Shown: positions 9,278-63,700, counted from the stretch's first letter. The stretch: DNA of 64,000 nucleotides from Deltaproteobacteria bacterium (GCA_020353155.1 CP070689.1:1038302-1102301); one strand, 5' to 3'. The notes: a model not told the origin generated them from the letters alone. A program made the numbers and translations.

Positions 9278-9396
9278 AGCATGGGGCATGGAGCATAGAG
9301 TCATTTCTCATTGCTCATTTCTCATTGCACATTTGAAGCTAAGGAGCACTATACAAAAATGAGAAATGAAAAATCCTAAATGCGAAATGTGAAATT
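9271..9396. repeat. word-array palindrome (GGCATAGA-type array, then CATTTCTC / GAGAAATG hairpin)
   Basis: GGCATAGAGCATGGGGCATGGAGCATAGAG overlaps the stop codon. Arms 9302-9334 and 9357-9395 are inverted degenerate 8-mer arrays. Confidence 0.8.
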
Positions 9397-9774: not shown

Positions 9775-10012
9775 CCCGGATATTACATGAATCACCTGCT
9801 GCGACCACGAAACTGGGAACCCGCTTGCGGGACTGAGCGGAGCGCAGCGAGCGCGAATAATATGGCCGTCCTCCCTGGCGTCCTCGGGTGTCGGCCCCTG
9901 CGACGTACCGTTAAGGTACGCCTCGGGACCAATCCCGCGGTCCCGCGGGACGGTTGCCAGGTGGCACGCCCATCTTCGCGGTCTCGCGACAGCAATTCAT
10001 GAAACATCCGGG
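9775..10012 (+). repeat. MITE-like GC-rich palindromic element, type A, copy 1
   Basis: Terminal inverted repeats CCCGGATATTACATGAAT / ATTCATGAAACATCCGGG. The 3' ~130 nt is ~85-90% identical by eye to 27415-27546. Confidence 0.8.
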
Positions 10013-10239
10013 CTAGAATTTAAATGTAGAACACTCTAGATCTTTTTATAGCTTTTTGTCTAGGTCAAGAAGCCTCAAAAAAGGTATTTCCCTAAAAATT
10101 GCACTAATATAATTACATTTTTGTGGTTGCATGTGATTTTGTTATTGAGTATGTTTTTTCTGTTTACCAACACCTTCATATAATCCTTTCGTAGGGTTTT
10201 TGTGCGACGGTGGAAGGTATTTATGGCAGGGATAAAGCA

Positions 10240-12546
10240 ATGAAAAATGTTTATGAGAACGTCCTCCAGCTGATTGGCAACACACCTTTGATTCTGATAA
10301 ACCGCCTAAATTCAAATCCAAAGGTGAGTATTTATGCCAAGCTGGAGTCTCGAAATCCAGGCGGTTCAGTCAAGGATCGCATTGCTTTGCAAATGGTTGA
10401 ACAGGCGGAGCTCAGAGGAGAGCTTACGCCGGAAAAGACCATAATCGAAGCCACAAGTGGCAATACTGGCATTGGCTTGGCCGTGGTAGCCGCAGTAAAA
10501 GGATATAAAATTACCCTGGCCATGCCTGAGACTGCCAGTCAAGAGCGCCAGAAGATACTCAAAGCACTTGGGGCTGAGATATTGCTTACCCCTGGGGCCC
10601 TGGGAACGGACGGTTCTATAGAGAAGGTTTATGAACTGGCCCGCCAGTTTCCTGATCGTTATTTCATGCCTGACCAATTCAATAATGAAGACAACTGGAA
10701 GGCTCACTATTACACAACCGCCAAAGAAATCTGGGAACAGACTGAGGGTAAGGTTACTCACGTAATAGCGACTCTTGGCACTACCGGTACCGCTATCGGC
10801 ATAACGAGACGCCTGAAAGAGTACGACCAAGACATATGTGTGATTGCGGTCGAGCCCTATATGGGACATAAAATTCAAGGGCTCAAGAATATGAAAGAGT
10901 CATATGTTCCAGGGATTTTTGCTAAAGAGCTCTTGGATGAGATAGTTCATATAGAAGATGCCGAGGCTTTCGAAACAGCGAGGAGGTTGGCCAGGGAAGA
11001 GGGCCTTTTTGTAGGAATGAGCGGTGGGGCCTCCATGGCAGCGGCCCTCCGTACTGCACTTAGGTTGGAAGAGGGAAACATTGTGGCCATCCTTCCCGAT
11101 GGTGGTGAACGGTATCTCAGCACGAACCTATTCACCACCCTGTCGGAGCCAGATTTTCGCTTTTACAATACCTTCTCACGTCAAAAAGAAGAATTTAAGC
11201 CGATCTCGGAAGGTAAAATCTCTATTTTTACCACCGGTCCAGCGGTGGGGGAATCACTCGAGCTAACTGAGAGTCGCCGTTTGGTCGTAGCCGATCTCCT
11301 CCGGCGTTATTTGGAATATAAGGGTTTTGAGGTAAGTCAAGCTATCAACTTAACCGACATGGGAGAAAAGGCCATATTGGATTCTAGTCACGGCTTAGAT
11401 ACTGACGCCGAGCGGTATATGGAGATCTGCCGGAGGGATACAAAAGTCTTGGGGGTACAACCCGCCACTTACTATCCCCGTACAAGCGAATACGTCGATG
11501 ATATCCTAGAGATTAGCAAGATCTTAATGGAGAAAGGTATAGCTTACGAAAAACTCCGTTCGGTATATTTTGACATTTCCAAATTTGCTGACTATGGAAA
11601 GCTGTCTCGCGTGGATTTGCAAAAAATCAGGCTCGGCAAGACAGTTGATCTCGAAGCTTATGAGAAGGAGAATCCGCGAGATTTTACTCTTCTTAGACGG
11701 GCGACTCTGGCCGAGCTGAAAAGGGGAATATATCTAAAAACTACCTGGGGAAACGTGCTGCCCTCCCTGCATCTCGAGACAGTAGCTTTAGCCATGAAAC
11801 AGCTGGGAACTACCATAGACATTCATGTAAGCAGTTTGGACTTTTTGTTTCCTCACAATGAAAACGAAATAGCCATCGCCCAAGCAGCCACGGGCAAACC
11901 TCTCGCCAACTACTTCATTCATTGCGAGCGGGTGGTTGAGGATGGCAAGAAGATGTCGAGAGAAGGTGAGGGTAGGGAGACGGTGCAGCAACTGCTAAAT
12001 CGGGGGTACAGTGGCAGACAGATACGTTACTGGTTGCTGGCTACCCATTACCGTAAGCCCCTGCATTATGAAGAGGGCAGATTAGATGAGGCTGCACGGA
12101 GCCTGGAACGGTTGGATGAATTTGTCCAAAGGTTGCAATATGTAGTTGCAGGTGACGATGCCGGCGAAGTCGATCAGTTAATCTATGAAGTTGAGCAGAA
12201 TTTTGACGAGGCAATGGGCGACGACCTGAACATTTCATCAGCCCTTGCTGCTATCTTCAGTTTTGTCCGCAAACTCAATCCATACATTTCTGAGGGTCGT
12301 CTGAGCGAGGGTCAAAAGGAAGCAGCCCTTGCAGCGATGGAGCGACTGGATTCTGTGTTGAACCTTATTCACTGCGCAGAGGCTGACCTGGATGAGAAAA
12401 CCTGTCGACTTCTTGAAGCCAGAGCTGAGGCTAGAAGGAGTAAAAGATGGGAAGTGGCTGACCGAATCCGGCACGAACTTCTGGAGCTTGGTATCAGGGT
12501 TGTTGATACTCCGGAGGGAACCCGCTGGAAACGGGTAGAAAATTAG
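10240..12546 (+). CDS. fusion: cysteine synthase (CysK/CysM type) + catalytically degenerate cysteinyl-tRNA-synthetase-like domain
   Basis: N-terminal part has GGSVKDR, TSGNTGIGLA, GTTGTAIG and GMSGGA. C-terminal part has FYNTFSRQKEEFKP, FPHNENEIA, KMSREGEG and a CysRS-like anticodon/C-terminal region. Start set to ATG 10240. Confidence 0.8.
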   Translation: MKNVYENVLQLIGNTPLILINRLNSNPKVSIYAKLESRNPGGSVKDRIALQMVEQAELRGELTPEKTIIEATSGNTGIGLAVVAAVKGYKITLAMPETASQERQKILKALGAEILLTPGALGTDGSIEKVYELARQFPDRYFMPDQFNNEDNWKAHYYTTAKEIWEQTEGKVTHVIATLGTTGTAIGITRRLKEYDQDICVIAVEPYMGHKIQGLKNMKESYVPGIFAKELLDEIVHIEDAEAFETARRLAREEGLFVGMSGGASMAAALRTALRLEEGNIVAILPDGGERYLSTNLFTTLSEPDFRFYNTFSRQKEEFKPISEGKISIFTTGPAVGESLELTESRRLVVADLLRRYLEYKGFEVSQAINLTDMGEKAILDSSHGLDTDAERYMEICRRDTKVLGVQPATYYPRTSEYVDDILEISKILMEKGIAYEKLRSVYFDISKFADYGKLSRVDLQKIRLGKTVDLEAYEKENPRDFTLLRRATLAELKRGIYLKTTWGNVLPSLHLETVALAMKQLGTTIDIHVSSLDFLFPHNENEIAIAQAATGKPLANYFIHCERVVEDGKKMSREGEGRETVQQLLNRGYSGRQIRYWLLATHYRKPLHYEEGRLDEAARSLERLDEFVQRLQYVVAGDDAGEVDQLIYEVEQNFDEAMGDDLNISSALAAIFSFVRKLNPYISEGRLSEGQKEAALAAMERLDSVLNLIHCAEADLDEKTCRLLEARAEARRSKRWEVADRIRHELLELGIRVVDTPEGTRWKRVEN

Positions 12547-26143: not shown

Positions 26144-26203
26144 TGGGTGCCTATGATATTTATCAATGGTGGCCTGCCGCAAGGCGAATAGCGCAAAGCG
26201 TTT

Positions 26204-26300
26204 GGTGAACAGTAAAGGGTGAACGGTAAACTGATTATGCGCTGGGTCCACAACCGCTGACCATTTCCCGTTTACTCTTTTTTTCGCTAGACGCTATGCG
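26204..26300. repeat. ~100-nt dispersed element E, copy 1 (upstream of the Dus-family gene)
   Basis: ~80-85% identical by eye to 54827-54929, including the exact shared run CGTTTACTCTTTTTTTCGCTA. Confidence 0.8.
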
Positions 26301-26333
26301 ATAATAGTTTACGCAGTAACTAACCAAGAGTAA

Positions 26334-27368: not shown

Positions 27369-27546
27369 CCCGGATGTTTCATGAATTGTTTACTACGATC
27401 ACGGATATGGGCATCCTTCCGTGCGTCCTCGGGTGTTGGCTCCTGCGACGTACCGTTCAGGTACGCCTCGGGACCAATACCCTGCGGTTGCCCGGTGGCA
27501 CGCCCATCTTCCTGGTCTCGTGACAGCAATCCATGAAACATCCGGG
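27369..27546 (+). repeat. MITE-like GC-rich palindromic element, type A, copy 2
   Basis: TIRs CCCGGATGTTTCATGAATTG / CAATCCATGAAACATCCGGG. Begins at the first base after the hydrolase stop codon. Confidence 0.85.
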
Positions 27547-27564
27547 TTAGGACAGGAGAGGAAA

Positions 27565-28413: not shown

Positions 28414-30135
28414 ATGACAGAATGGCAACAGAGACTGGCCAGGCGGATTGAAGCGGCCAGGGGTGATAGGCCAGTGGATCTCCTTTTTCGGGGGGCAAAG
28501 GTGGTCAACGTTTTTACTGGGGAGCTGGTCTCAACCTCCGTTGCCGTATTCGATGGCGTGATCGTTGGCTTTGAGGATCGTCAGGCAAGGGAGGTTGTTG
28601 AGCTAAATGGTGCCATTCTCTCCCCAGGCTTTATTGACGGCCACTTTCACCTAGAAAGCAGTCTGCTGGTACCAGGAGAATTTGCCAAAGCAGTACTTCC
28701 CCACGGCACCACTACGGTGGTGGCTGATCCGCATGAGATCGCCAATGTCGCAGGGGTCGACGGTGTTCAATTTATGCTCGAGGCCAGCGAGGACATAGGG
28801 CTTGAAATTTTCTATATGGCCCCTTCCTGTGTACCGGCTACTCACCTGGAGACAGCCGGAGCGGAATTGACTGCCAATGACATTGAAAGATTAGCCCAAC
28901 ATCCAAGAGTTATAGGACTCGCGGAGATGATGAACTTTCCAGGTGTGATTTTTGGTGATCCCGCAATCTTGGACAAGCTTGATCGTTTTCGGGACAAGGT
29001 AATTGATGGACACTCTCCGGGTCTCAGCGGCGCTTCACTGGACGCCTATTTGTGTGGTGGGATTGGGTCAGATCACGAGTGTACTCGACTGGAAGAGGCC
29101 AGGGAGAAGCTCGCCAAAGGGATGCACATCATGTTGCGGGAAGGGAGTCAGGCGCGAGATCTAGAAGCCTTGGCTCCTCTGGTAACCGCAAAAACGAAAC
29201 ACCGTTGCATGTTGGTGAGCGACGACTGCCATCCGGAAGACCTCCTCGAGCACGGGCACATGAACCGGGTTCTCAAGAGGGCTTCTGAGTTGTCCATCGA
29301 CCCAATAAGCGGCATCCAACTAGCAAGTCTTAATCCAGCCCGCTACTTTGGCTTGCGCACACTGGGTGCGATTGCTCCAGGCTATCAGGCGGATATGGTG
29401 GTCCTCAGATCGCTGGAATCGTTGGAAGTGTCCAGAGTATACAAAAAAGGTCAACTAGTTGCCAAAGAGGGTAAATGCTTGCTACCCGACCCAGCAGCCG
29501 GAGTAAAAACTGAGCTTATTTCTATGAAACTAGGGGAATTGAGAGAAGACGACCTGCACATTCAGATCGAAGGTACTAGGGTAAGGGCTATCCGAGCTGT
29601 GCCCAACACCTTGATAACCGAAGAGGAGATTCTCCCGGTAGCGGAAAGGCAAGGTGCGGCCGTGAGTGAGCCGGAGCGAGACTTACTCAAGATGGTTGTG
29701 ATCGAGCGACACCGTGGCAGCGGTCGTAGGGGTTTTGCTTTTATCCGCGGGCTTGGTCTCCGCCAAGGAGCACTTGCCTCAACAGTGGCCCATGATTCTC
29801 ACAATCTTATTGTAGTTGGGGCCAATGACTCGGATATGGTAGTTGCAGCAAATGTTTTAAGAGAGTTGGGAGGAGGACTAGTAGTGGTTAGGGATGGCCA
29901 AGTTGAAGCGTTGCTGCCGCTGCCTGTTGCCGGTCTGATGTCTAATGCTTCCCTGAAACGAGTGGTGGAGTTGAAAAAAGAGGTCGACCAGGCCGCCCTA
30001 GAGCTTGGGGCCACTCTGGAACAACCATTCATGGCCCTATCCTTTATGGCCCTACCAGTAATACCTAAATTGAAGCTAACAGATCAAGGGCTGGTTAATG
30101 TTGAAAGCTTCAACCATGTACCATTGTTTGTTTAG
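28414..30135 (+). CDS. ade: adenine deaminase
   Basis: 573 aa. SPGFIDGHFHLESS, TTTVVADPHEIANV and MAPSCVPAT motifs are characteristic of Ade. Confidence 0.85.
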   Translation: MTEWQQRLARRIEAARGDRPVDLLFRGAKVVNVFTGELVSTSVAVFDGVIVGFEDRQAREVVELNGAILSPGFIDGHFHLESSLLVPGEFAKAVLPHGTTTVVADPHEIANVAGVDGVQFMLEASEDIGLEIFYMAPSCVPATHLETAGAELTANDIERLAQHPRVIGLAEMMNFPGVIFGDPAILDKLDRFRDKVIDGHSPGLSGASLDAYLCGGIGSDHECTRLEEAREKLAKGMHIMLREGSQARDLEALAPLVTAKTKHRCMLVSDDCHPEDLLEHGHMNRVLKRASELSIDPISGIQLASLNPARYFGLRTLGAIAPGYQADMVVLRSLESLEVSRVYKKGQLVAKEGKCLLPDPAAGVKTELISMKLGELREDDLHIQIEGTRVRAIRAVPNTLITEEEILPVAERQGAAVSEPERDLLKMVVIERHRGSGRRGFAFIRGLGLRQGALASTVAHDSHNLIVVGANDSDMVVAANVLRELGGGLVVVRDGQVEALLPLPVAGLMSNASLKRVVELKKEVDQAALELGATLEQPFMALSFMALPVIPKLKLTDQGLVNVESFNHVPLFV

Positions 30136-30297
30136 GGCATGGAGCATAGGGCATAGGGCATAGAGCGTAGGGCATAGAGCGTAGGGCATAGAGAAATATA
30201 GCTGACAGCCTGCAGCTAGCAGTCGCCAAAGGGCAGCTAAGAGAGATCAGAGGTCAGAGGTTAAAGCTGATCTCTGACATCCGACTTCTGACCTCTG
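30135..30297. repeat. composite word-array element (GGCATAG array + CAGC-rich module + CAGAGGT hairpin)
   Basis: A run of GGCATAG(A/G)-type octamers starts at the stop codon. The W2 hairpin AGATCAGAGGTCAGAGGT...TGATCTCTGACATCCGACTTCTGACCTCTGG follows. Confidence 0.85.
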
Positions 30298-30319
30298 GAA
30301 TAGACGACCTGAACGATCG

Positions 30320-39295: not shown

Positions 39296-40426
39296 ATGTC
39301 TCATTCAATGCGTATAGCTTTCTATGCCCCTTTAAAACCGTTGGACCATCCCCATCCTTCCGGTGACCTTGTCATAGGAACAGGTCTCTATCACTTCCTT
39401 GGAGGCAGGGGCCATCAGATAGGCAGAGTAAGCCGCCTCCGGGCTCGTTGGATTTACTGGAAACCTTGGCTCTGGCCCCAGGTTGTGCGAAATCGAAATA
39501 GATCTTTGAAATATTGCCAAACAATGGCAGCTGATCTTTGGCTGACCTATCACAGTTACTACAAAGCACCTGACCTACTCGGTCCTTCCTGCTGCCGCCG
39601 TCTCGGTATACCCTATGTTATCTTTCAAGGCATCTACTCGACCAAGCGGCGGAAGCACTGGACCACTTGGGCTGGATTTGTCCTGAATCGGCAAGCACTC
39701 CTAACTGCGCACCACGTTTTCACCAACAGGAAAGAAGATTTGGTCAACCTGACAAGAATAGTGCCTGAAAAAAGTCTTACCTATGTAGCGCCTGGTATTT
39801 TTACGGAACAGTTCTTTTTTGATTTAGAGTCTCGCAAACAGCTGCGGCGGCAAATGGATATCTCTGACGGATTGGTGGTAGTTACCGCTGCCATGTTCCG
39901 ACCAGGGGTCAAGACCGAGGGGCTTTCTTGGGTTATTCGCTCATGTGGAGAGCTCTTTAGAAAGAATGTTCCTTTGTATCTGCTGATAGCTGGCGATGGA
40001 AAAGAAAGCCCCCGTCTTCGCCAGATGGCAGACCAGTGGCTCCCGGGGCGAGTTCGATTTCTTGGCAAGGTGCCACGAGAGGAAATGCACCGTTTTTACA
40101 GCGCCGGAGATTTATTTGCCTTTCCCGGTATTCGTGAGTCCTTGGGCATGGTGTACTTAGAGGCTCAGTCCTGCGGTTTACCGGTAGTGGCCTTTGCTGA
40201 TGGAGGCGTGCCGGAGGTGGTTGCGGATGAAGTGAGCGGTTATCTGGTGCGGCCCTTCGATGTCAGCGGATTCAATCAGGCTATTGTTCGGCTAGTGGAG
40301 GATTCCGCCATGAGAAGGCAGATGGGAAAAGCTGCGAGCGATTATGTGCGGAGCCGGCACGATCTACGTACGAATTATCGAATCGTGGAGGATATTTTGT
40401 TAGGCCTTGCGCAGGGCAAGGGGTAA
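39296..40426 (+). CDS. glycosyltransferase family 4
   Basis: ESLGMVYLEAQSCGLPVVAFADGGVPEVVADEVSGYLV. Confidence 0.75.
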   Translation: MSHSMRIAFYAPLKPLDHPHPSGDLVIGTGLYHFLGGRGHQIGRVSRLRARWIYWKPWLWPQVVRNRNRSLKYCQTMAADLWLTYHSYYKAPDLLGPSCCRRLGIPYVIFQGIYSTKRRKHWTTWAGFVLNRQALLTAHHVFTNRKEDLVNLTRIVPEKSLTYVAPGIFTEQFFFDLESRKQLRRQMDISDGLVVVTAAMFRPGVKTEGLSWVIRSCGELFRKNVPLYLLIAGDGKESPRLRQMADQWLPGRVRFLGKVPREEMHRFYSAGDLFAFPGIRESLGMVYLEAQSCGLPVVAFADGGVPEVVADEVSGYLVRPFDVSGFNQAIVRLVEDSAMRRQMGKAASDYVRSRHDLRTNYRIVEDILLGLAQGKG

Positions 40427-40494
40427 GAGATCAGATATCAGATGTCTGAAGTCAGGGGTAGAGCTGATCTCTGATCTCCGACTTCTGACCTCTG
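40427..40494 (+). repeat. W2 dispersed hairpin element (CAGAGGT family)
   Basis: GAGATCAGATATCAGATGTCTGAAGTCAGG...AGCTGATCTCTGATCTCCGACTTCTGACCTCTG. Its core is shared with 30260-30320 and, inverted, with 63555-63661. Confidence 0.8.
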
Positions 40495-40553
40495 TGATGG
40501 ACGACTTGACCAGCGGTTAGACGCAGAGATTTAAGGTTTTTGAAGAAAGGAGA

Positions 40554-52029: not shown

Positions 52030-53991
52030 ATGTACGACGATAAAGAGCTAAAAGAGTATCGAGACCTGTTAGAAGTGCCGGATCATTTTGAGGAAGGTTT
52101 CGATTGGAAAACAATTATTGGCGCCATTTTCATCGGTTTCCTCATGATGCCGGGCAGCATGTACCTGCAGCTTGTAATAGGTACAGGCATCGGCCCCGCG
52201 GCTCGTTGGGTGACCATAATTCTTTTTGCTGAACTGGCCAAAAGGTCCTACTCCGAACTAAAACAGCAGGAGATATTCCTCCTTTATTATATGGCGGGGG
52301 CTGCCCTGGCATCACCCTTTCAGGGACTGCTCTGGAACCAGTACCTGGTCCAGTCAGATGCAGCCAAAATGTTGGGACTCACCGAATTCATCCCTGCGTG
52401 GGTGGCACCAGCAGTAGGTTCTGATTCTCTCCTCGAACGCACCTTCTTTCACCGGGATTGGATGATCCCAATTTTACTTCTGGTTGGGTCACAGATTATT
52501 CAACGTATCGATCATTTTGGTCTTGGCTATGCTCTGTTCAGGATCACCTCCGATGTGGAAAAGCTTCCTTTCCCCATGGCGCCGGTGGGAGCCCTAGGGA
52601 CGATGGCCCTGGCCGAATCAACAGAAGATAAGCAAAAGAGTTGGAAATGGCGCGTTTTCTCCATCGGCGGGGTCATTGGTTTGGCCTTTGGCTCTCTATA
52701 TGTGCTTTTGCCTGCTGTTTCAGGCTTGCTATTGACGGAGCCAATCCGTCTTATTCCTATACCGTGGATTGACTTAACCCGCCATACTGAGGATGTATTG
52801 CCAGCTGTGGCCACGGGGTTACAGCTCGACCTAGGGCTCATATTCCTTGGCATGGTCTTGCCATTTTGGGCAGTAATGGGCGGCCTGGTGGGATTGTTAA
52901 TCACCGTAGGAGCCAACCCGGTTCTCTACAAACATGGCATACTCCACCGCTGGCGTCCGGGCATGGGGACGGTTGACACGGTTTTCGCCAACAATTTTGA
53001 TTTTTATATGAGTTTTGGTATTGGCCTTGGACTCGCTATTGGTCTTATAGGGGTGTGGTATGTCCTGCGCTCATTTTGGAATGGCGGTGGAGGTCAACGG
53101 GTTAGCTTTAAAGCACTCTTCAAGCCCCCAGCCGGAAGGGGTGATTTCAATTTTTGGATCTCCATAGGGATCTATGTTTTCTCTACTCTGGCCTATACGG
53201 GCCTATGTGTGTGGCTGGTTCCTAAATTTCCCTGGATCTTCTTTCTTGGCTACGGCTTCATCTATACTCCGGTTATCTCGTATATTACTGCCCGCATGGA
53301 GGGCATTGCCGGACAGTTCGTCAGTTTACCCCTGGTGAGAGAGGCGAGCTTCATTGCAGGGGCCAAATTCTTTGGCTACCAGGGAATTGAGATCTGGTAC
53401 GCTCCCATTCCCATTCACAACTACGGGGAGGCCACTGTCCAGTTTCGCAAGATAGAACTCACTGGAACAAGCATCAGGGGTATCATCAAGGCAGAGATTG
53501 TGGTATTTCCGGTTGTTATGGTGGCAAGCCTTCTCTTCTCTCAGTTTATCTGGCGTCTAGCGCCCATACCCTCCAGTAGCTATCCCTATGCCCAGGAGCT
53601 CTGGCATCTACAGGCTTTAAACACCTTGCTGATGCAAACTTCGACTTTGGAGGGAAATTCTCTTTTCTTCCAGGCGTTGAAGGCAAGTTACGTTTTGGGT
53701 GGCTTGGGCTTTGGCGTAGTGACCTATATCCTACTGAATATCTTGGGCTTACCTGTGCTGCTAGTGTACGGGGTGGTTCGTGGTTTGGGTCAATCTACTC
53801 CCCATAGCATGATCCTCGAGGTGGTGGGAGCTTTACTGGGTCGCTTCTTTTTCCTCAAGCGTTACGGCAAAATGTGGCGCCAGTATGCACCTGTACTACT
53901 GGCGGGATTTTCCTGTGGAATGGGTCTTACTGGTATGTTCGCCATGGGTGTCACCCTAATTCTAAAATCATTAAGTAAACTTGCTTACTAA
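52030..53991 (+). CDS. polytopic membrane protein of unknown family (653 aa)
   Basis: Hydrophobic helices throughout. No motif I can assign. Confidence 0.7.
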   Translation: MYDDKELKEYRDLLEVPDHFEEGFDWKTIIGAIFIGFLMMPGSMYLQLVIGTGIGPAARWVTIILFAELAKRSYSELKQQEIFLLYYMAGAALASPFQGLLWNQYLVQSDAAKMLGLTEFIPAWVAPAVGSDSLLERTFFHRDWMIPILLLVGSQIIQRIDHFGLGYALFRITSDVEKLPFPMAPVGALGTMALAESTEDKQKSWKWRVFSIGGVIGLAFGSLYVLLPAVSGLLLTEPIRLIPIPWIDLTRHTEDVLPAVATGLQLDLGLIFLGMVLPFWAVMGGLVGLLITVGANPVLYKHGILHRWRPGMGTVDTVFANNFDFYMSFGIGLGLAIGLIGVWYVLRSFWNGGGGQRVSFKALFKPPAGRGDFNFWISIGIYVFSTLAYTGLCVWLVPKFPWIFFLGYGFIYTPVISYITARMEGIAGQFVSLPLVREASFIAGAKFFGYQGIEIWYAPIPIHNYGEATVQFRKIELTGTSIRGIIKAEIVVFPVVMVASLLFSQFIWRLAPIPSSSYPYAQELWHLQALNTLLMQTSTLEGNSLFFQALKASYVLGGLGFGVVTYILLNILGLPVLLVYGVVRGLGQSTPHSMILEVVGALLGRFFFLKRYGKMWRQYAPVLLAGFSCGMGLTGMFAMGVTLILKSLSKLAY

Positions 53992-54031
53992 GGCAAGCAC
54001 ATGTCGTTCAAATCGTTTAAATCGTCAAATG

Positions 54032-54205
54032 GTAAACGGTGAAGAGTAAACGGTACGAGATGTTACCCTTTATTTGTTATACGTTATTCGTTATAGGTAA
54101 AAGATCAGCGTGGAACTCGCTTTTCTCTTGCCTCTGATTTGTTGCTGCCTGCTGTCTTCCGACCTCTGACCTCCGACTTCTGATTCCTTACCCTATGCCC
54201 CATGC
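54032..54205. repeat. left copy of a long inverted repeat (IR-L)
   Basis: 54048-54205 equals the reverse complement of 60617-60795, with 2 mismatches and one 21-nt indel (aligned by hand). Confidence 0.9.
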
Positions 54206-54214
54206 CCTCCGCCT

Positions 54215-54802
54215 TCACCACGCATGCGGTTGAATCCACTTTTTAACAGCGCCCGAAGACTGGTAACCCTCAAGCCGGCCTAGTTCTTTGCCAGATTGAA
54301 ACAGGACTAAAGTAGGAGTTCCACCTATTCGATATAAAGCGGGGACATGCTGATCCACATCAACATTTAATGAACCTACCTTAAGGCGGCCTTCGTAATC
54401 CTTGGCTATTTTGTTTATGGTGGGACTCAGTAGCTTGCATGGACCGCAATCGGGAGAAAAGAAGTTGACCAGAAAGGGCAGGGGTGAGCCCAATACGGTT
54501 TCAGTGAAGTTTTGATCTGAGAGCAGCAAAGGTCCAGCTTGAGTAGAAAAGTTCAAAATGAGGGGAGACTTACATTTTCCACAGATCGGCTGATCTCCAA
54601 CCTTATTGAGAGGGATTTTGTTGCTAGTTTGGCATTGCTTGCAGGAGACAATAAATGTTCCACTGCGAATAGGTGATGTATCCGAAAAAAGATGTTCCTT
54701 GCACTTGCCACAGTTGGGATTCTGTCCTAGCCTAGCTGATGGCAACTTATTTTTTGCGCCGCAATGGCTACATTTTATGCAGTAATCTGTGTTCCCCGCC
54801 AT
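54215..54802 (-). CDS. thioredoxin with two N-terminal zinc-ribbon modules (Trx2-like)
   Basis: CIKCSHC...CGKC and CKQC...CGKC, then a thioredoxin fold with active site DCGPC. Confidence 0.8.
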   Translation of the reverse strand: MAGNTDYCIKCSHCGAKNKLPSARLGQNPNCGKCKEHLFSDTSPIRSGTFIVSCKQCQTSNKIPLNKVGDQPICGKCKSPLILNFSTQAGPLLLSDQNFTETVLGSPLPFLVNFFSPDCGPCKLLSPTINKIAKDYEGRLKVGSLNVDVDQHVPALYRIGGTPTLVLFQSGKELGRLEGYQSSGAVKKWIQPHAW

Positions 54803-54826
54803 ATTTGTGAATCATCCCGAGATTCT

Positions 54827-54929
54827 GGTAAACAGTAAACGGTGATGGGTAAACCGATTATTCGCTAGTTCCGCAACCATTTACCATTTACCGTTTACTC
54901 TTTTTTTCGCTATGCGCCATGCGCTATGC
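54827..54929. repeat. ~100-nt dispersed element E, copy 2 (upstream of the thioredoxin gene)
   Basis: Paralogous to 26204-26300. Same orientation relative to the downstream minus-strand gene. Confidence 0.8.
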
Positions 54930-55053
54930 AAATGGAATATAAATTACATTAAGAATGAGATTGGTTCTGTCAAGAAGGGAAAGGATTGCGGATTTGTCCT
55001 TCGGACTCCCACCCTTCGGGCGGGTTCCCGGTTTCGGATTGCAGATTGCAGAT

Positions 55054-55821
55054 TTAGTCTAGGTCCAAATCAGGCGGTTGGGTCTTGGCGTAATCTTCAT
55101 CTTCTTCGGGCTCAACCTCGGGCTCAGGGCCGATGTTCTCTTTGACATCATCGGGTAAGGCACCGTAGTTAATTCGAAGATAAGGAGCACCAATACCGGG
55201 CGGGCGATTCTTGTCGTATTTTACAAGATCCCCGGGTGCTTGTTCGGTGGTGATGATCCGAACTCCCTCACTTCCACCTGCCACACAAACTGAGATCTGG
55301 TCATCTGGGAAGCGGGCCCAGAAGATATTTACTTGGGCTGCTCCTTCTTTGGACCAGCCAATGACGCGCCGCTCCTTCTGATCTTTACTTAGGATCAGCC
55401 ACACTTCATCACTCTTGTGAATGTCGGAGAGAAGACGAACTTTTTCCTTTTTTTCCTTCCTGGAAGTGTCTACCCCAACGTCGTAAAAAAAGGTGTTGAC
55501 AATCTTTAGAACATCGGGTGGTAGGTCACGAGGTTCTAGAGACATGTGGCTCAGCATCCATCCAGGCGGAAGGTCTTTTTCATCCGGATTGAAAGGGACA
55601 GTTTCCTCCGAGTTGGCCAGGATGCGAAGACCTGTGTCGCCGCCGACCACCAATAGATCGATGAAACCGCTAGCCAATTCAGCCCAAAACACGCTGAGAT
55701 CGCAGGGTCCGGACTTGGACCAGCCAACCACAATTCGGTGAAGTCGGTCTTCTAAACTGGGTAAAATAAGGTATCTAGTTTTATACGCGTTTGAAACAGG
55801 AAAAATAATTTCTTTCGCCAT
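55054..55821 (-). CDS. hypothetical protein with internal tandem duplication and acidic tail
   Basis: Two ~110-aa repeats sharing (V/I)GWSK(S/E)G, FWA and GG(D/S)xG(L/V)RI. C-terminal EPEVEPEEDEDY. Confidence 0.6.
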   Translation of the reverse strand: MAKEIIFPVSNAYKTRYLILPSLEDRLHRIVVGWSKSGPCDLSVFWAELASGFIDLLVVGGDTGLRILANSEETVPFNPDEKDLPPGWMLSHMSLEPRDLPPDVLKIVNTFFYDVGVDTSRKEKKEKVRLLSDIHKSDEVWLILSKDQKERRVIGWSKEGAAQVNIFWARFPDDQISVCVAGGSEGVRIITTEQAPGDLVKYDKNRPPGIGAPYLRINYGALPDDVKENIGPEPEVEPEEDEDYAKTQPPDLDLD

Positions 55822-56101
55822 TGTCCAGAACCCAACGGATTTGATTAGACAAAAATACTAGCAAAGATTAGGAATTTTTAGCAACAGGTAAATAGTAATC
55901 CCCCAATTCGTTTGCAATGCTTGTGCCAGCCAACAGTAGCTGCGGCTCAATTTAAGTTGATTTTGCTCTTGCCCTTTAAGGTCTTCTGGGGATAAATGTA
56001 GAAGGACGCTTTAGCCGCCCTAACAAAATTCGTTCTTCCTGCGTCGTGCTATGCTTTTAGCCTCTCGGGTGCCGCACTTGCCCTAATAGGACATAGATCA
56101 A

Positions 56102-57010
56102 ATGGATAGCAGGAATTTGGAGTCATGGCAAACGGTGGCCTGGAACGGAATCAGTATGCGAGTGCCTTCGCAGTGGGAGGTAAGCTCTTTGACAAAATCT
56201 TACCTTCAGCTGGATGACGGCATAGGCCCCGTACTTGAGCTCAAGTGGCAGCAGGTGAGAGGTGTCTTTTCCCACCAAGATCATTTGAAGAAGCTGGCTC
56301 GTCATTCCAGATCTGTTCCTGAACTAAATTTTCAGCAAACTTCTCTGCCAGAGGAGTGGCATCAAGCTTTGCGTCATTTTGAGACTCAGTACTTTGAGTG
56401 GCAGAGTGGGGAAGTAGATGGGAAAGGGGTTGTTTTGTATTGTCCGGCGAGTAAGCAGGCCAGCCTGCTGCAATTTTATCAGCAGCGGGGTTTAAAGGGC
56501 TCTGAGGTGCAACTGGGCGTGTTGGACTCATTTCGGGATCAATGTGAACAAAACATGGTAAGATGGTCATTGTTTGGCCTGAATGCGCTAATGCCCAAAT
56601 CGTTTGAGTTGATACGATATCGTTTTGAGCCGGGCCGCTACCAACTAGAGTTTAAGGATCGTCAAGAGTGTGTTGAACTTAATCGCTGGGGTCCAGCTGA
56701 TTTGCTTCTGAGGAAGAGTGATCTTCGCCACTGGTTTGAAGAGAAGTGCAAGGAACTAGACTGGTGCAGGTCGGCAGGCATCCGAGAGCGTAATTATCAC
56801 GGCAGCCCTGCTCTTTATGGAAAAAGCCGAGGTTCGAATAGCCTCACAGTGAGGCTTTGGGCAAGGATATCAAGGAAATTACCCCACGTGTGGTTTCGCA
56901 TCTGGCACCTTTCTTCTCGAAACCAGATTCTGGGTGTGGCGGCACGTGGCTTGAAATCTTTGGATGAATACTTGCTTGAGGAAATCTGCAGAAACTATGA
57001 TATGGCCTAA
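56102..57010 (+). CDS. hypothetical protein (302 aa)
   Basis: Long clean ORF. No recognisable motif. Its 3' end overlaps the next gene. Confidence 0.55.
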   Translation: MDSRNLESWQTVAWNGISMRVPSQWEVSSLTKSYLQLDDGIGPVLELKWQQVRGVFSHQDHLKKLARHSRSVPELNFQQTSLPEEWHQALRHFETQYFEWQSGEVDGKGVVLYCPASKQASLLQFYQQRGLKGSEVQLGVLDSFRDQCEQNMVRWSLFGLNALMPKSFELIRYRFEPGRYQLEFKDRQECVELNRWGPADLLLRKSDLRHWFEEKCKELDWCRSAGIRERNYHGSPALYGKSRGSNSLTVRLWARISRKLPHVWFRIWHLSSRNQILGVAARGLKSLDEYLLEEICRNYDMA

Positions 57011-57038
57011 AAGAAAAAAGCTGCAGAAGAATCACCTT

Positions 57039-57431
57039 ATGAGCGAACCTTCCACTAGATCAGAGGCTTTTGCCTATTTTCCGGTGAAAAATCAAGAGGT
57101 GCTGGAAGAGAGGCTGGAGGGGGGTGTAATGGTGTTAACCTATCCCCTAGTGATACGACCTTGGCTGGCAGGTGTTGCTCAGAGGCTTGGGTTGCGATCC
57201 AGAGAACCTCTAACCAGAAGGCTTCAACTTGATGAAATGGGTAGTCTCACCTGGAGTCTTTTAGACGGCAAACGCACTGTACAAGATGTTGTGGACTTTT
57301 TATCTCGCCGCTATAAACTAAACCGTAGGGAAGCCGAAGTTGCAACGACCGGATTTCTTCGCGAACTTGGTAAGCGGGGTCTTATTGGACTACGATCACC
57401 CCACGAGGAGGACAGAGAGAAATCCACTTGA
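57039..57431 (+). CDS. PqqD-family (RRE-like) protein
   Basis: LDEMGSLTWSLLDGKRTVQDVVDFLSRRYKLNRREAEVATTGFLRELGKRGLI matches the PqqD winged-helix pattern. ATG 56997 is an alternative start. Confidence 0.55.
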   Translation: MSEPSTRSEAFAYFPVKNQEVLEERLEGGVMVLTYPLVIRPWLAGVAQRLGLRSREPLTRRLQLDEMGSLTWSLLDGKRTVQDVVDFLSRRYKLNRREAEVATTGFLRELGKRGLIGLRSPHEEDREKST

Positions 57432-57489
57432 CAAAGAGGAGAACCTCTCGGCACCATGTAAACCCCTTTGACCAGGGAGGAGGTGTACA

Positions 57490-58413
57490 ATGCGTATAGT
57501 ATTGGTTGGGCAGGCGCCTTTTGGTGCTAAAGTACTGGAAGGGCTTCTGGAAAAGGGAGAAGAGGTGGTGGCAGCATATACCCCACCTGACAGGGGGAGT
57601 AGGCTGGACCCCCTAAAAGAAGCGGCACTAGCCAAAGGAATTGCGATCTATCAACCCGCAACCTATAAGGATGATCAAGTTTTCGCCGAATACCAAGACC
57701 TAAAACCTGACCTGACGATTTTAGCTTTTGTAACTGACATTATCCCTGAAAAGTTTTTTACTGAACCCTCTCGCGGTACCATTTGTTACCATCCTTCTCT
57801 TCTGCCACTTCACCGTGGCGCTAGCGCCATAAACTGGGCGATCATTATGGGTAGAGCCAAGACCGGTCTCACTATTTTTTGGCCGGACGGTGGAATAGAT
57901 ACAGGCCCAATTCTTCTCCAGAAAGAGGTGGAGATCGGAGCGGATGATACCACCGGATCCATCTACTTCAATCATCTTTTCCCTATGGGAGTTGATGCCA
58001 TCCTCGAGTCTGTCGATCTGATCAAAGAGGGCAAGGCCCCCAGGGTTAAACAGGCAGAAGAGGGAGCCACTTACGAGCCGCCATGTGATGATCGTGTGGC
58101 TGCCATAGACTGGGAAAAATCTGCCCAAGATGTTTACAATCTGGTGCGAGGCTGTGATCCACAACCTGGGGCTTATGGCCAGTTGAAGGGAGAGAAAATT
58201 CGGTTCTACGGTGCAAGGCTTTTGCTGGAGACAACGGAAGAGACGCCCGGTACGGTTTCAAAAGTTTATCCGGAAGGCTTTCAGGTTGCTCTAAAGGGAG
58301 GAAAACTGGCTGTCAGTAAAGTAAGGCCGGAGACTGGGGGCAAAATGGAGGCTGCGGCTTTCGCCTCGGAAAGAGGATTAGAAGTCGGAGATCGGTTTGG
58401 CAATGGCGCGTGA
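57490..58413 (+). CDS. formyltransferase family protein (Fmt / 10-formyl-THF-dehydrogenase N-terminal type)
   Basis: YHPSLLPLHRGASAINWAII and IFWPDGGIDTGPILLQKE, plus a C-terminal Fmt-like domain. Strong RBS AGGGAGGAGG. Confidence 0.8.
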   Translation: MRIVLVGQAPFGAKVLEGLLEKGEEVVAAYTPPDRGSRLDPLKEAALAKGIAIYQPATYKDDQVFAEYQDLKPDLTILAFVTDIIPEKFFTEPSRGTICYHPSLLPLHRGASAINWAIIMGRAKTGLTIFWPDGGIDTGPILLQKEVEIGADDTTGSIYFNHLFPMGVDAILESVDLIKEGKAPRVKQAEEGATYEPPCDDRVAAIDWEKSAQDVYNLVRGCDPQPGAYGQLKGEKIRFYGARLLLETTEETPGTVSKVYPEGFQVALKGGKLAVSKVRPETGGKMEAAAFASERGLEVGDRFGNGA

Positions 58414-58657
58414 GACAAAACCAGACAAAAAGGAGATGGAGGAGGAAAACCGCCGCATACGAACACTAAGACTTTTGGTGGATTTCTCCCTGGCTTACCT
58501 CGCCCAGACTAAATTGCCTCTAGAAGAGGCGCAGGCTGTGGTGGAAGGAGTTAAAAAACAGGCCCTGCGCCTTTTTCCAGAAAAGGAGGAGACCTTCGAC
58601 CTGATCTACCTTCCAAGATTTCGCCGTTTGCTAAGGGAGAAGTATCACCTGCACTAG
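58397..58657 (+). CDS. small charged hypothetical protein (86 aa)
   Basis: ORF overlaps the formyltransferase 3' end by 17 nt. No motif. Confidence 0.35.
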   Translation: MAMARETKPDKKEMEEENRRIRTLRLLVDFSLAYLAQTKLPLEEAQAVVEGVKKQALRLFPEKEETFDLIYLPRFRRLLREKYHLH

Positions 58658-58789
58658 AGTGCCGGGGCGAAAAGGTAGGACGAAGGACTATTACCCATAA
58701 CCCATGACCTGGCTGAAGAGACCGCTGCGTTTAGGGCTATGCACTCTGCCACCTTTTGAAAACGAATAGAAGGAATTGTGCTCAGACCT

Positions 58790-59575
58790 ATGAAAGAAAT
58801 TTACGTACGCTTGATGAACGAAGCGCGATGCATTGCATCCCGTTACGAGTTACCTGAATTCTACCGGCGATTCAAGCCCTCGCTGACAATTTCACGGCGT
58901 ATCTTTTTTAATAACCCCTTGCTAATTCACTGCAGAGAATTGATTACCCCGCAATATATCGGTGACTTTGGTCACGGACTGCAACATGCTACCAAGGTGA
59001 GTGTTGATGCAGGTACCATCGTTCTTTTGGAAGGCGAGAAGTATTTTACTGTCCAAGCAGAATTAGAGCGAGCGGTTGTGTTGGTTCAGCTCGCAGGACT
59101 TCTCCACGATATAAAAAGGATGGAAAACAAACACGCTTCCGCCGGTGCAAGAGCGGCTAGGGAAATACTATATGATTTTCCTCTAAGCCCCCTAGAGGTA
59201 AACTGTGTAGCAGAGGCCATAGCTAATCACGAAGCATTTTCCAAGCCCCAGACGTGCGAAACGCTAACAGGGCAGCTGGTAGCTGATTCGCTCTATGACG
59301 CAGACAAATTCCGCTGGGGGCCCGACAATTTTACCCATACAGTCTGGTATATGATGAGCTATCACCAAGTGGGCATAGCCGAACTGTGTGGCCGTTTCCC
59401 TTGGGGTGTGGATGGTATCCTCAAGATAAAGGATACCTTCAGGACTAACATAGGGGTTCAGTACGGCCCGGAGATCATCGATTTAGGAGTAAGGATCGGC
59501 AAGGAGATTTATCAACATCTCCAGCGATACCTGAATTCAATAGAGGTAGAGTTGAAGACAGAGTCTAGAGACTAG
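58790..59575 (+). CDS. HD-domain protein
   Basis: HGLQHATKV ... LAGLLHDIKR (H...HD). GTG 58778 is an alternative start. Confidence 0.65.
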   Translation: MKEIYVRLMNEARCIASRYELPEFYRRFKPSLTISRRIFFNNPLLIHCRELITPQYIGDFGHGLQHATKVSVDAGTIVLLEGEKYFTVQAELERAVVLVQLAGLLHDIKRMENKHASAGARAAREILYDFPLSPLEVNCVAEAIANHEAFSKPQTCETLTGQLVADSLYDADKFRWGPDNFTHTVWYMMSYHQVGIAELCGRFPWGVDGILKIKDTFRTNIGVQYGPEIIDLGVRIGKEIYQHLQRYLNSIEVELKTESRD

Positions 59576-59630
59576 TCCTAACGTAGAAATCAAGACGGGG
59601 GGCAAGATTGTCCAGGGTGAAAGGGATGAG

Positions 59631-60608
59631 ATGACTCTTACTGAAAACGCAGGCATCGAAGGGCTACGCATAGGCCAGGTGACAGACAAAGAGCATAACA
59701 CTGGTTGCACCGTTGTGCTGGCCGAGAATGGTGCCACTGCAGGGGTTGATGTCCGAGGAGGAGCACCAGGGACACACGGAACCGATAGCTTGAGACCGGA
59801 AAACCTAGTAGAACAACTTCATGCAGTGATCCTTACCGGTGGCAGTGCTTTCGGTTTGGCCTCGGTACAGGGAGTTATGCAATACTTGCGTCAAAGAAAT
59901 TGTGGCTTCCAAACCGAATACGGAGTGGTTCCTATTGTGAGCGGTGCGGTAATCTTCGATCTCGGCCTAAACAAGAGTGAAACTCTTCCTGACGCCGATA
60001 TGGGTTATCGAGCATGTGAAAACTCTTCAATAGAGGGAGCTGAGCAGGGATGCGTGGGTGCAGGCACCGGCGCTACAGTGGGAAAGCTTTTCGGACTTGA
60101 ACGTGCCATGAAGGGCGGACAAGGATTCGCCTCTCTGATTTCGCCTAATGGACTCAAGCTTTGGGCCCTGGCAGTGGTCAATGCTTTCGGTGACATTCGC
60201 AACCATGAAAATGGTCAGTTACTGGCAGGGGTGCGCACTAAAGACGGACTGCGATTGGCAAATACAGCCGCACGCCTGACTGAATTGGAGGTTTTGAGGG
60301 GTTTCTCGCCCACCAACACTGTCCTAGGTGTAGTGGGCACAAAAGCCACCCTTTCAAAAGCTGAACTCACCAGGGTGGCTCAAATGGCTCATGATCGTAT
60401 TGCTCGTGCCGTTGTTCCTTCCCACACTCTTTACGATGGTGACACGATCTTTGCCTTGAGTACGGGGTTTCATGGGGGAGTTGACACGAGCGTTGTTGGT
60501 GCCCTTGCTGCCCAGTTAATGGCCCAAGCTATTGTCAACGGTGTTGTACATGCTGTTGGGGTGGATGGCCTTCCCGCGTACCAGGACCTTTTCGGCAATA
60601 AGGCATAG
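59631..60608 (+). CDS. P1/S58 (DmpA-type) family peptidase
   Basis: NTGCTVVLAENGATAGVDVRGGAPGT and the TNTVLGVVGT nucleophile region. Confidence 0.75.
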   Translation: MTLTENAGIEGLRIGQVTDKEHNTGCTVVLAENGATAGVDVRGGAPGTHGTDSLRPENLVEQLHAVILTGGSAFGLASVQGVMQYLRQRNCGFQTEYGVVPIVSGAVIFDLGLNKSETLPDADMGYRACENSSIEGAEQGCVGAGTGATVGKLFGLERAMKGGQGFASLISPNGLKLWALAVVNAFGDIRNHENGQLLAGVRTKDGLRLANTAARLTELEVLRGFSPTNTVLGVVGTKATLSKAELTRVAQMAHDRIARAVVPSHTLYDGDTIFALSTGFHGGVDTSVVGALAAQLMAQAIVNGVVHAVGVDGLPAYQDLFGNKA

Positions 60609-60616
60609 GGCATAGA

Positions 60617-60815
60617 GCATGGGGCATAGGGTAAGGAATCAGAAGTCGGAGGTCAGAGGTCGGAAGACAGCAGGCAGCAGCCAGCGAGCAGCTGGCAGCA
60701 AGAAATCAGAGGCAAGAGAAAAGCGAGTTCCACGCTGATCTTTTACCTATAACGAATAACCTATAACAAATAAAGGGTAACATCTCGTACCGTTTACCGT
60801 TCACGGTTTACCATT
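60617..60815. repeat. right copy of the long inverted repeat (IR-R)
   Basis: Reverse complement of IR-L. Carries an extra 21 nt in the CAGC-rich module. Confidence 0.9.
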
Positions 60816-60882
60816 TACCTTCAACCGCAAATAAGATTTTATGAGTTATCTTTTTGCAATCAATGGAAATAGGAGTTAAGAC

Positions 60883-61449
60883 TTGAAACAAATTATCAAT
60901 TTCTTCTTCGAATTGGGGATGTTGAAGAAAACTCCAAGGAGTGGGTACCAATTTCTTGGTTCTGGAACTGAGTCTGTGGCTGATCATGCTTTTCGAGTGG
61001 CGACAATTGGCTTCACCATGGCGAGGCTGGACAAGGAAGCCGACGTCTTTACCGTAATGCGGATGTGTTTGTTTCATGATCTTCCCGAATCCCGCACGGG
61101 TGACCTAAACTATGTAAACAAGCGCTACGTTAAAGTTAAGGAGGACCAAGCTGTAAAGGATCTGGCCGAGACACTTCCTTTCGGCACAGAAATTCAGGAT
61201 TTGCTGGAAGAGTTCAAGGAAGGAGAAACGCGCGAGGCCCGATTGGCTCGGGACGCAGATCAATTAGATCTCATTTTGGAACTGAAGGAACATCAGGATT
61301 TAGGAAACCGCTATGCCAAGGATTGGATCCATTTCGCCCTCAAACGGCTGAAAACGGATTTGGGTAAGCGGTTGGCGGCGCAGATTCTAGAGACCGATTT
61401 TACAGCCTGGTGGTTCGAGGGGAGGGACCATTGGTGGAGTGACGAATAG
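60883..61449 (+). CDS. HD-domain phosphohydrolase (YfbR-like 5'-deoxynucleotidase family)
   Basis: ESVADHAFRVA and CLFHDLPESRTGDL. Confidence 0.7.
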   Translation: MKQIINFFFELGMLKKTPRSGYQFLGSGTESVADHAFRVATIGFTMARLDKEADVFTVMRMCLFHDLPESRTGDLNYVNKRYVKVKEDQAVKDLAETLPFGTEIQDLLEEFKEGETREARLARDADQLDLILELKEHQDLGNRYAKDWIHFALKRLKTDLGKRLAAQILETDFTAWWFEGRDHWWSDE

Positions 61450-63485: not shown

Positions 63486-63601
63486 TGCGCGAAGCGTAAG
63501 GTGCTTTGTATTGCCAGGCTGGAGGTCGGGCGAGACGGGCGAGACGAGTGGGAAGTCGTTAAAACCGTTCAAATCGTTCAAGTCGTTGAGGCCGTCCACA
63601 A

Positions 63602-63670
63602 CAGAGGTCAGAAGTCGGAGATCAGCTTCACCCTGACCTCAGACATCTGATCTCTGACCTCTTTTCTTTT
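63602..63670 (+). terminator. W2-family hairpin followed by a T-tract (terminator candidate)
   Basis: CAGAGGTCAGAAGTCGGAGATCAG pairs with CTGACCTCAGACATCTGATCTCTGACCTC, followed by TTTTCTTTT. Confidence 0.5.
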
Positions 63671-63700
63671 AAGGCTGCTAGCTGGACATTGGGGAGATCA

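Follow-up and report, generated by a model that had tools for sequence, protein, structure and literature searches.

We analysed a 64-kb stretch of DNA (the window) from a bacterium labelled Deltaproteobacteria (GCA_020353155.1, CP070689.1:1038302-1102301), in which two almost identical copies of a non-coding intergenic repeat, inverted relative to each other, bracket a block of eight genes. The two arms are paralogous copies of one composite repeat, most probably made alike by recent ectopic gene conversion. The bracketed block consists of eight conserved genes of an ordinary chromosomal kind, neither imported nor moved, and the pair is a commonplace product of this unusual lineage with its many repeats: the youngest and cleanest case of a pattern, not a singular one. 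To judge from the best protein relatives, which are uncultured metagenome-assembled genomes (MAGs) labelled Deltaproteobacteria, Syntrophobacterales or Desulfobacteraceae, the host is an uncultured Desulfobacterota lineage (NCBI label Deltaproteobacteria or Syntrophobacterales). Copy numbers and scans of open reading frames (ORFs) given below refer to the window; loci of relatives carry L numbers.

The inverted repeat was recovered independently by repeat search, MAFFT, blastn and coordinate-mapped global alignment. The segment 54046-54205 is the reverse complement of 60617-60797 with two mismatches and one 21-nt indel. An earlier reading of the window made without database searches (the sequence-only reading) had paired 54048-54205 with 60617-60795 at two mismatches and a single 21-nt indel; global alignment reproduced this exactly and placed the mismatches at 54082/60761 and 54142/60680. 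The weaker similarity that had been noticed 15-20 nt further outward is also present: the outer ~20 nt of the left copy contain three further mismatches (54038, 54044, 54045), and similarity reaches 54027/60816. Repeat search returned the arms as 54027-54192/60651-60816 and 54143-54213/60609-60679, and blastn between the two copies gave E values of ~1e-60 to 1e-69. A 31-nt word from the core has exactly two occurrences within the window (0 expected, 100 shuffles). Other window spacers have at most ~23 nt in common with the element, and the next-best pairs of similar spacers are 80-83% identical.

Both copies begin at the stop codon of a gene and have the same polarity toward that gene. Read in the sense of the adjacent gene, the modules follow each other in the same order in both copies: stop codon, GGCATAG/GGCATGG, TCAGAAG/TCGGAGG/TCAGAGG, CAGCNNN, AAATCAGAGGCAAGAGAAAAGCGAGTTCCACGCTGATCTTTTACC, TATAACG-type, GGGTAACATCTCG and TACCGTT-type. 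The pair is inverted because the polarity follows the trailed gene, and the trailed genes, for thioredoxin (Trx) and the S58 peptidase, are encoded on the minus and the plus strand, respectively. The 653-aa gene and the thioredoxin gene converge on a spacer of 223 nt, and the left copy takes up most of it. In composition the 5′ half is 74-80% purine, and the 3′ half contains little G (C/G ratio 1.5-2.0). The CAGCNNN module has five units in the right copy, two in the left copy (CAGCAGG CAGCAAC, 5′ to 3′ on the minus strand, followed by the core hairpin) and two, in another register and by a different three-unit contraction, in the orthologue of L001, whose TACCGTT array shows a further difference of 7 nt, that is of one unit. 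These indels represent expansion and contraction of the arrays by whole heptamers.

The 37-nt core hairpin has a predicted folding energy of -13.4 kcal/mol (z = -3.1 against shuffles). Its 4-bp GC-rich inner stem lies within a 13-bp interrupted stem, CUUUU is inside the 3′ arm, and the terminator consensus scan made no call. The register of the hairpin shifts among copies (left and right copies of the window, L001, three copies in L003). The coordinates of all these features are collected in Table 1.

The first module behind a stop codon is usually a GGCATAG/GGCATGG array (60598-60631; also 30133-30193 and 9272-9300), which at the S58 gene includes the stop codon itself. The 7-nt unit of the GGCATAG type holds TAG, therefore three units would place a stop codon in every reading frame. 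The series (GGGCATA)n puts G-triplets 4 nt apart, an arrangement that may be G-quadruplex-like.

Table 1. Coordinates of the repeat copies, their flanks, the bracketed genes and composite copies in two relatives (window positions unless a relative is named)
Feature	Position	Strand or orientation	Remarks
Left copy, composite intergenic repeat	54027..54205	minus	near-perfect tract 54046-54205; polarity as thioredoxin gene
Right copy, same repeat	60617..60816	plus	directly after S58 peptidase gene, upstream of HD_3 gene; near-perfect tract 60617-60797
Perfect run, 63 nt	54143-54205 / 60617-60679	inverted	global alignment
Perfect run, 58 nt	54083-54140 / 60703-60760	inverted	global alignment
Perfect run, 36 nt	54046-54081 / 60762-60797	inverted	global alignment
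Perfect run, 11 nt	54027-54037 / 60806-60816	inverted	global alignment
21-nt indel, three extra CAGCNNN heptamers	60682..60702	plus	right copy only; alignment
Non-array core, interrupted hairpin GGCAAGAGAAAAGCGAGTTCCACGCTGATCTTTTACC	60711..60747	plus	3′ arm contains CTTTT run
Left-copy twin of core hairpin	54096-54132	minus	core word only at these two window sites
Native left-site flank, distal	53992..54026		GGCAAGCACATG then TCGTTCAAA 9-mer array, from 653-aa stop codon to outer edge of left copy
Native left-site flank beside thioredoxin stop	54206..54214	minus	AGGCGGAGG on minus strand; resembles left-site orthologues, not right copy
Native right-site flank	60817..60882	plus	HD_3 ribosome-binding region (GGAAATAGGAGTTAAGAC then TTG); common to right-site orthologues, absent from left copy
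Thioredoxin-2-like gene (Zn-ribbon and thioredoxin domains)	54215..54802	minus	stop codon adjoins left copy
Peptidase S58 / P1-family (DmpA-like) gene	59631..60608	plus	TAG stop 60606-60608 inside first GGCATAG-type array
Bracketed eight-gene block	54215..60608		Trx (minus), 255-aa (minus), 302-aa, PqqD-like, formyltransferase (Fmt-like), 86-aa, HD-domain, S58 peptidase
L019 composite copies	6073-6423, 8200-8493, 11166-11512	left site inverted; two direct	upstream of 302-aa gene, downstream of 86-aa gene
L003 composite copies	1-200, 3000-3130, 5140-5230		

The case for conversion comes from the orthologous sites in relatives. At the right site the closest relative, L001 (S58 protein 98% identical), has a nearly identical element with three mismatches in ~165 core positions, six in 189 positions overall, and additional unit indels. 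L002, a 95% relative, has a different middle at this site, and the 90% relatives L003-L012 have a third type, of which only the part from the hairpin to TACCGTT is recognisably related. At the left site the middles are unrelated in L019 and in the relatives whose Trx is 89%, 85% or 82% identical; no Trx homologue in the database came closer than 89%, and look-ups with the exact S58 and Trx proteins of the window returned no record. The left-site spacers of L093, L094, L095 and L019 have only two stretches in common with the left spacer of the window: AGGGCATGGGGCATAGGG, at positions 7-24 after the Trx stop codon (at the same offset in L093), and a distal stretch consisting of GTTTACCATTT plus AACGATTTGAACGACATGT. 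The native distal flank of the left site (Table 1) is absent from the right copy, and its AACGATTTGAACGACATGT is common to the left-site spacer of L095. In addition, the left spacer of L095 contains 25 nt identical to the right copy of the window (TTTACCGTTCACGGTTTACCATTTA).

The identity between the left and right copies starts and ends inside these shared left-site modules; it begins within AGGGCATGGGGCATAGGG. Since relatives hold the shared modules at the left site, and L095 holds 25 nt of the right copy, homology anchors pre-existed at both edges. Edges that fall inside modules shared by the left site with its orthologues point to homology-anchored conversion rather than to transposition. 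Moreover, the left and right copies of the window share two states against the right-site copy of L001, so at least one homogenising event is younger than the split between the window and L001. The proposal of a recent duplication or gene conversion made in the sequence-only reading thus agrees with what we found, and the copies belong to a genome-wide class of repeats.

We propose that RecA-type homologous recombination, acting non-reciprocally, copied one spacer over the other. The exchange would have been anchored in modules that were already common to both spacers, GCATGGGGCATAGGG at the edge towards the gene and the TACCGTT...GTTTACCATTT array at the distal edge. Two substitutions and a three-heptamer length change, the latter by slippage, would have been acquired after the conversion. 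Copying from right to left seems more likely, though not proven, because the right copy is the one documented in the closest relative.

Several points weigh against conversion as the whole explanation. The direction of copying is not fixed, and the left site of the 98% identical relative is in no collection; both copies could be old and repeatedly homogenised. A mobile element that targets arrays would leave the same blurred edges inside arrays. Ahead of the 302-aa gene, the spacer of the window is free of arrays, but L019 and L003 have a full composite there, which looks like insertion or deletion of a whole element, not like conversion alone. Divergence between the window and L001 is lower in the element (3/165 to 6/189) than at 4-fold degenerate sites (31/374; Fisher p = 0.003-0.02) or in the HD-S58 spacer (9/55; p = 0.001), a hint of constraint or of recent recombination between strains that conversion alone does not explain; despite this low divergence, whole middles are swapped at distances slightly larger than that of L001. 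Finally, copies were counted within 64 kb of the genome, and the core was absent from the other collections searched: the exact 22-nt core had no match in the GTDB species representatives, a 30-nt degenerate and a 23-nt core pattern had none each in JGI metagenome contigs, and blastn of the element against plasmids and phages gave no match.

Some of these points would suit a small non-autonomous mobile element, resembling a miniature inverted-repeat transposable element (MITE) or a REPIN, a young copy of which was inserted into the left spacer by a transposase encoded elsewhere in the genome. The element is a discrete, near-identical unit of ~180 nt with a unique core. Families are genome-specific, with several near-identical copies in neighbouring spacers of relatives; whole composites are present or absent at an orthologous spacer, and the turnover of the right-site spacer among the 98%, 95% and 90% relatives departs from the tree. 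We consider such an origin unlikely. The ends of the element (GCATGGGGCATAGGG... and ...CGTTTACCATTT) are not complementary, that is, there are no terminal inverted repeats, and the flanks (left AGGCGGAG / GACGATTT; right TAGGGCATAGA / ACCTTCAA) show no direct repeat that would be a target-site duplication. The edges of the identity lie inside modules that the left site already has in relatives, the polarity is tied to the adjacent gene and not random, no transposase or RAYT-like gene was found among the 48 window ORFs scanned, and the core, present only twice in 64 kb, was not found in the GTDB representatives, JGI contigs, plasmids and phages scanned.

The low divergence from L001 could also mean that identity is kept by selection. 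The element would then be a functional 3′-flank module (a terminator, a stabiliser of mRNA ends or a platform for an RNA- or DNA-binding protein) that co-regulates the thioredoxin and S58 transcripts. At both sites it starts at the stop codon with fixed polarity, it has fewer window-L001 substitutions than 4-fold sites (p ~0.003-0.02) or the neighbouring spacer (p ~0.001), the central hairpin has a CTTTT run (z = -3.1), and composition is strongly asymmetric, a purine-rich half being followed by a G-poor one. Elsewhere in the lineage, spacer arrays fold into strong hairpins, in some cases with a T-run behind them (63602-63672, L015, L093, L018; z = -3.7 to -7.8). We regard this as improbable, less likely than transposition. 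The same sites carry unrelated middles in relatives of 82-95% protein identity, so the specific sequence of the element is dispensable, and the low divergence is equally compatible with recent recombination. The predicted RNA fold of the whole element was no better than shuffles on either strand (z = -1.7 and -1.0). Promoter and terminator consensus scans gave regional counts not above those of shuffled sequence and no site within either repeat copy. Rfam gave no match at gathering score for the window, nor at E <= 1 for 53900-61000, and gene search detected no tRNA or tmRNA gene in the window.

Whether the bracketed block itself had moved was assessed by synteny. The neighbourhood comprises 13 genes in the order DUF6785 - 653-aa - Trx(-) - 255-aa(-) - 302-aa - PqqD - fmt - 86-aa - HD - S58 - HD_3 - GGDEF(-) - methyltransferase, where (-) indicates the minus strand, and the 13 window proteins were compared by tblastn with Fmt-centred loci from GTDB genomes. 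Order and strands of the 13 genes were kept in L013, L014, L015, L017, L019 and L020, and the metagenome or MAG contigs L001-L012, L093 and L095 agree with the window in gene order and orientation. Across both junctions the gene order was identical in L003, L013, L014, L015, L017, L019, L020, L093 and L095, down to ~77% Fmt identity. Since order and orientation are kept in the relatives that cover them, both junctions are ancestral. The GC content of the block is 0.44-0.50, that of the flanks 0.47-0.51. No recombinase, integrase, transposase or RAYT-like domain was detected among the 48 window ORFs scanned (Pfam, NCBIfam).

These results bear on the two other proposals of the sequence-only reading, an invertible segment and an acquired or rearranged cassette. 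The arms would then be either sites of a programmed recombination or the inverted-repeat borders of a cassette. The description of the locus in that reading was accurate: eight ORFs were found between the arms, and of the 48 window ORFs scanned against Pfam, none within the block or next to it encodes a recombinase, transposase or integrase. Long, near-perfect inverted repeats do bracket the genes, and the minimal homology for RecA-type recombination is well established: perfect runs of 63, 58 and 36 nt would allow RecA-dependent exchange between the arms. Nevertheless, both proposals appear highly improbable, the least likely of the explanations considered here. In all relatives that cover them, the block and both junctions have the same order and the same orientation; the comparison with related genomes that had been suggested showed a single orientation only, and the flipped order was present in no relative covering either junction. 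The GC content is unremarkable. Since each arm follows the 3′ end of a gene, an inversion would exchange like 3′ flanks and rewire no promoter. Relatives retain the gene order with entirely different spacers; the same genes with repeats absent or diverged had been named in advance as the outcome that would speak against a special role of the pair. Of the earlier interpretation, the recent copying or conversion thus stands, and the acquired cassette and the invertible segment are not supported.

As separate candidates, an acquired cassette is largely refuted by the conserved presence, order and orientation of the block in relatives. A composite transposon was rejected, the arms being ~180-nt non-coding array mosaics and not insertion sequences, and the GC content of the block being like that of the flanks. 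A site-specific inversion switch is not supported either: there is no recombinase gene among the ORFs scanned, and the arms neither flank a promoter nor split a coding region. Occasional, low-frequency RecA-mediated inversion through the arms is possible, and nothing indicates that it occurs or has a function.

The surroundings are those of a housekeeping region: the window encodes TrpRS, a cysteine synthase-CysRS fusion, Dus, an ECF sigma factor, glycosyltransferases, a helicase and the Fmt-like formyltransferase. The 653-, 255-, 302- and 86-aa proteins had no family match; they are conserved and syntenic in relatives. The conserved 302-aa protein (56102-57431 region) overlaps a PqqD-like protein (of the type that recognises ribosomally synthesised and post-translationally modified peptides, RiPPs) by 47 nt, directly upstream of the Fmt-like formyltransferase, and this pairing is clade-wide. 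In two remoter complete MAGs, L016 (after 11168) and L021 (before 8604 and after 13125), synteny breaks exactly at spacers that bear composites in other genomes, namely behind the 86-aa gene, ahead of the 302-aa gene and behind the S58 gene. Repeats at these sites may mark or mediate rearrangement breakpoints.

The pair has its place in a wider system of arrays. In this clade many spacers, especially those behind the 3′ ends of genes, are ordered mosaics of short tandem arrays, mostly of heptamers. The purine-rich half (GGCATAG, TCAGAGG and CAGCAGG types) lies near the upstream stop codon and the G-poor half (TATAACG, TACCGTT and 9-mer types) is distal; some spacers additionally contain a short unique core. 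In the window, period-7 arrays (Tandem Repeats Finder) cover 4.5% (0.045) of non-coding and 0.04% (0.0004) of coding positions, a ~100-fold enrichment; they are present on both arms and in spacers all along the window, mainly in those behind gene 3′ ends, and the arrays that adjoin a stop codon have a purine-rich sense strand. Among loci of at least 3 kb, the window and the majority of its close relatives (Fmt identity at least 77%, or S58/Trx contigs) carry 13-77 nt of such arrays per kb. The close relatives L002 and L020 are low, with ~5 nt per kb. The complete MAG CP070692 (L021, 76%) has none, and most remoter Desulfobacterales/Syntrophobacterales loci have ~0-3 per kb. Judged from these loci, the period-7 arrays are restricted to the clade.

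Spacers within one genome are closer to each other than to their orthologues, and each genome has its own composite type at orthologous sites. Three spacers of L019 share a unique segment of ~66 nt, identical as printed, and the copies are 76-89% identical over 166-218 nt; the left-site copy is inverted relative to the copies behind plus-strand genes, as in the window. Two spacers of L003, separated by 3 kb, show 95.7% identity over 94 nt and a third is related, and in L014 a hairpin-forming composite peculiar to that genome is present at least six times within 14 kb. Copies related to the core of the window element occur in several spacers of relatives. In clean cases the orientation of the composite follows the strand of the adjacent gene. 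This distribution amounts to concerted evolution of the spacers within each genome.

With these observations in view, the pair might be read as a momentary picture of a hitherto undescribed class of intergenic elements that is actively spreading through an uncultured Desulfobacterota clade; its members would be composite 'heptamer-grammar' modules, each 150-300 nt long. Such modules would have a polarity tied to the upstream gene and array-built hairpins, would be replaced at orthologous sites faster than synonymous sites change, and would be copied between neighbouring spacers; they could spread by a dedicated mobilisation activity or by unusually frequent array-anchored conversion. We advance this only tentatively and think it doubtful. 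If it were true, identical inverted copies could drive inversion polymorphism of core gene blocks. Recent conversion between two existing spacers is the reading that we prefer for the pair.

Further repeats and hairpins were seen elsewhere. Downstream of the methyltransferase gene (63595-63675, plus strand), the array AGAGGTCAGAAGTCGGAGATCAG can pair with its inverted complement in a hairpin of ~55 nt, which is followed by TTTTCTTTT. The predicted structure at 63602-63672 (-29.3 kcal/mol, z = -3.7) is terminator-like and built from heptamer words; hairpins of an array with an inverted array are also present in L015, L093 and L018 (z ~ -5 to -8), some followed by a T-run. The Trx/255-aa spacer (54826-54926) consists of GGTAAAC-type units and their complement (ACCATTT / ACCGTTT array) followed by eight T, and is 83% similar to 26203-26303. 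Array hairpins of the TCAGAGG/CCTCTGA type are common to the spacers at 40425-40509, 30234-30312 and 63593-63663 at 80-81% identity, and this similarity may reflect shared words, not common descent. The segments 9860-10016 and 27405-27550 (plus strand) are direct copies, GC-rich and non-array, 82-83% identical with one 11-nt indel. One of them is located in a long spacer that precedes the cysteine synthase-CysRS fusion gene, the other between hydrolase and adenine-deaminase-like genes. Their predicted shared fold has 34 pairs from two sequences, without covariation, and Rfam gave no credible match; they are a candidate structured leader or an unrelated repeat.

Among known systems, the closest are the intergenic heptamer arrays: the cyanobacterial short tandemly repeated repetitive (STRR) sequences, the mixed heptamer arrays of Microcystis and the TAACTGA repeats of marine Beggiatoaceae (PMC4679880). 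The element fits the descriptive definition of such arrays, being period-7 and non-coding. As in the STRR and Beggiatoaceae arrays, tandem 7-nt units in 2-8 copies occur almost only between genes, several words are mixed per spacer, lengths vary in whole units, and no function is established (PMC4679880). The present arrays differ in their hosts, which are Desulfobacterota MAGs, and in their words; they lie mostly behind stop codons and not before start codons, follow a recurring order of a purine-rich and then a G-poor half, and often form hairpins of an array with an inverted array. A cyanobacterial origin of the window, to which the resemblance to STRR sequences might point, was rejected on the protein homologues, which come from Deltaproteobacteria/Syntrophobacterales MAGs. 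A full-text search of the literature on heptamer or STRR-type repeats in Deltaproteobacteria or Desulfo- lineages returned nothing relevant, and STRR terms gave only cyanobacterial and Haemophilus papers. To our knowledge, GGCATAG, TCAGAGG, CAGCAGG, TATAACG and TACCGTT are not among the published STRR units.

Repetitive extragenic palindromic (REP) sequences, bacterial interspersed mosaic elements (BIMEs) and REPINs are built on 20-40-nt palindromes with a conserved GTAG or CGTC tag and are associated with the RAYT transposase (PMC3116915, PMC3733652). Shared with the element are the abundance as extragenic repeats at 3′ ends and between genes, the formation of hairpins, the mosaic clusters and the genome-specific families that evolve within genomes (PMC3116915, PMC3733652). 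The present element, however, is ~180-200 nt long and consists mostly of heptamer arrays; its sole palindromic part is the 37-nt interrupted hairpin, which lacks a tag. There is no GTAG or CGTC tag at its ends either, and no RAYT-like gene among the scanned window ORFs.

The pneumococcal BOX elements, composed of modules of 45-59 nt with terminal complementarity, are likewise modular, non-coding intergenic repeats of few module types with variable internal copy number. The element has no sequence relationship to them, consists of heptamer arrays and lacks terminal complementarity. In enterobacterial genetics, recombination or gene conversion between dispersed inverted repeats such as rrn operons and insertion sequence (IS) copies can invert the intervening segment. 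The present pair resembles these in that two inverted homologous sequences lie a few kb apart, which conversion keeps alike and between which a crossover would invert the interval; it differs in that the repeats are ~180 nt long and non-coding, no relative shows an inversion, and conversion was deduced from the edges of the tract. As far as testable here, the element fails the defining features of MITEs, REP sequences, invertible switches and composite transposons.

The comparison removes a false lead, since the 6.4-kb block is not a mobile or switchable cassette. More interesting than the pair is the lineage-wide array system, in which a sulfate-reducer-like or syntroph-like uncultured clade has spacers saturated with arrays. 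Such repeats likely break short-read assemblies, and they could mediate rearrangements in lineages represented by MAGs only. The intergenic heptamer arrays of cyanobacteria have been known for decades without an agreed function or mechanism of spreading. A second, unrelated lineage would provide a comparative handle on them, with a clear polarity relative to genes, datable copy events and terminator-like hairpins built from arrays.

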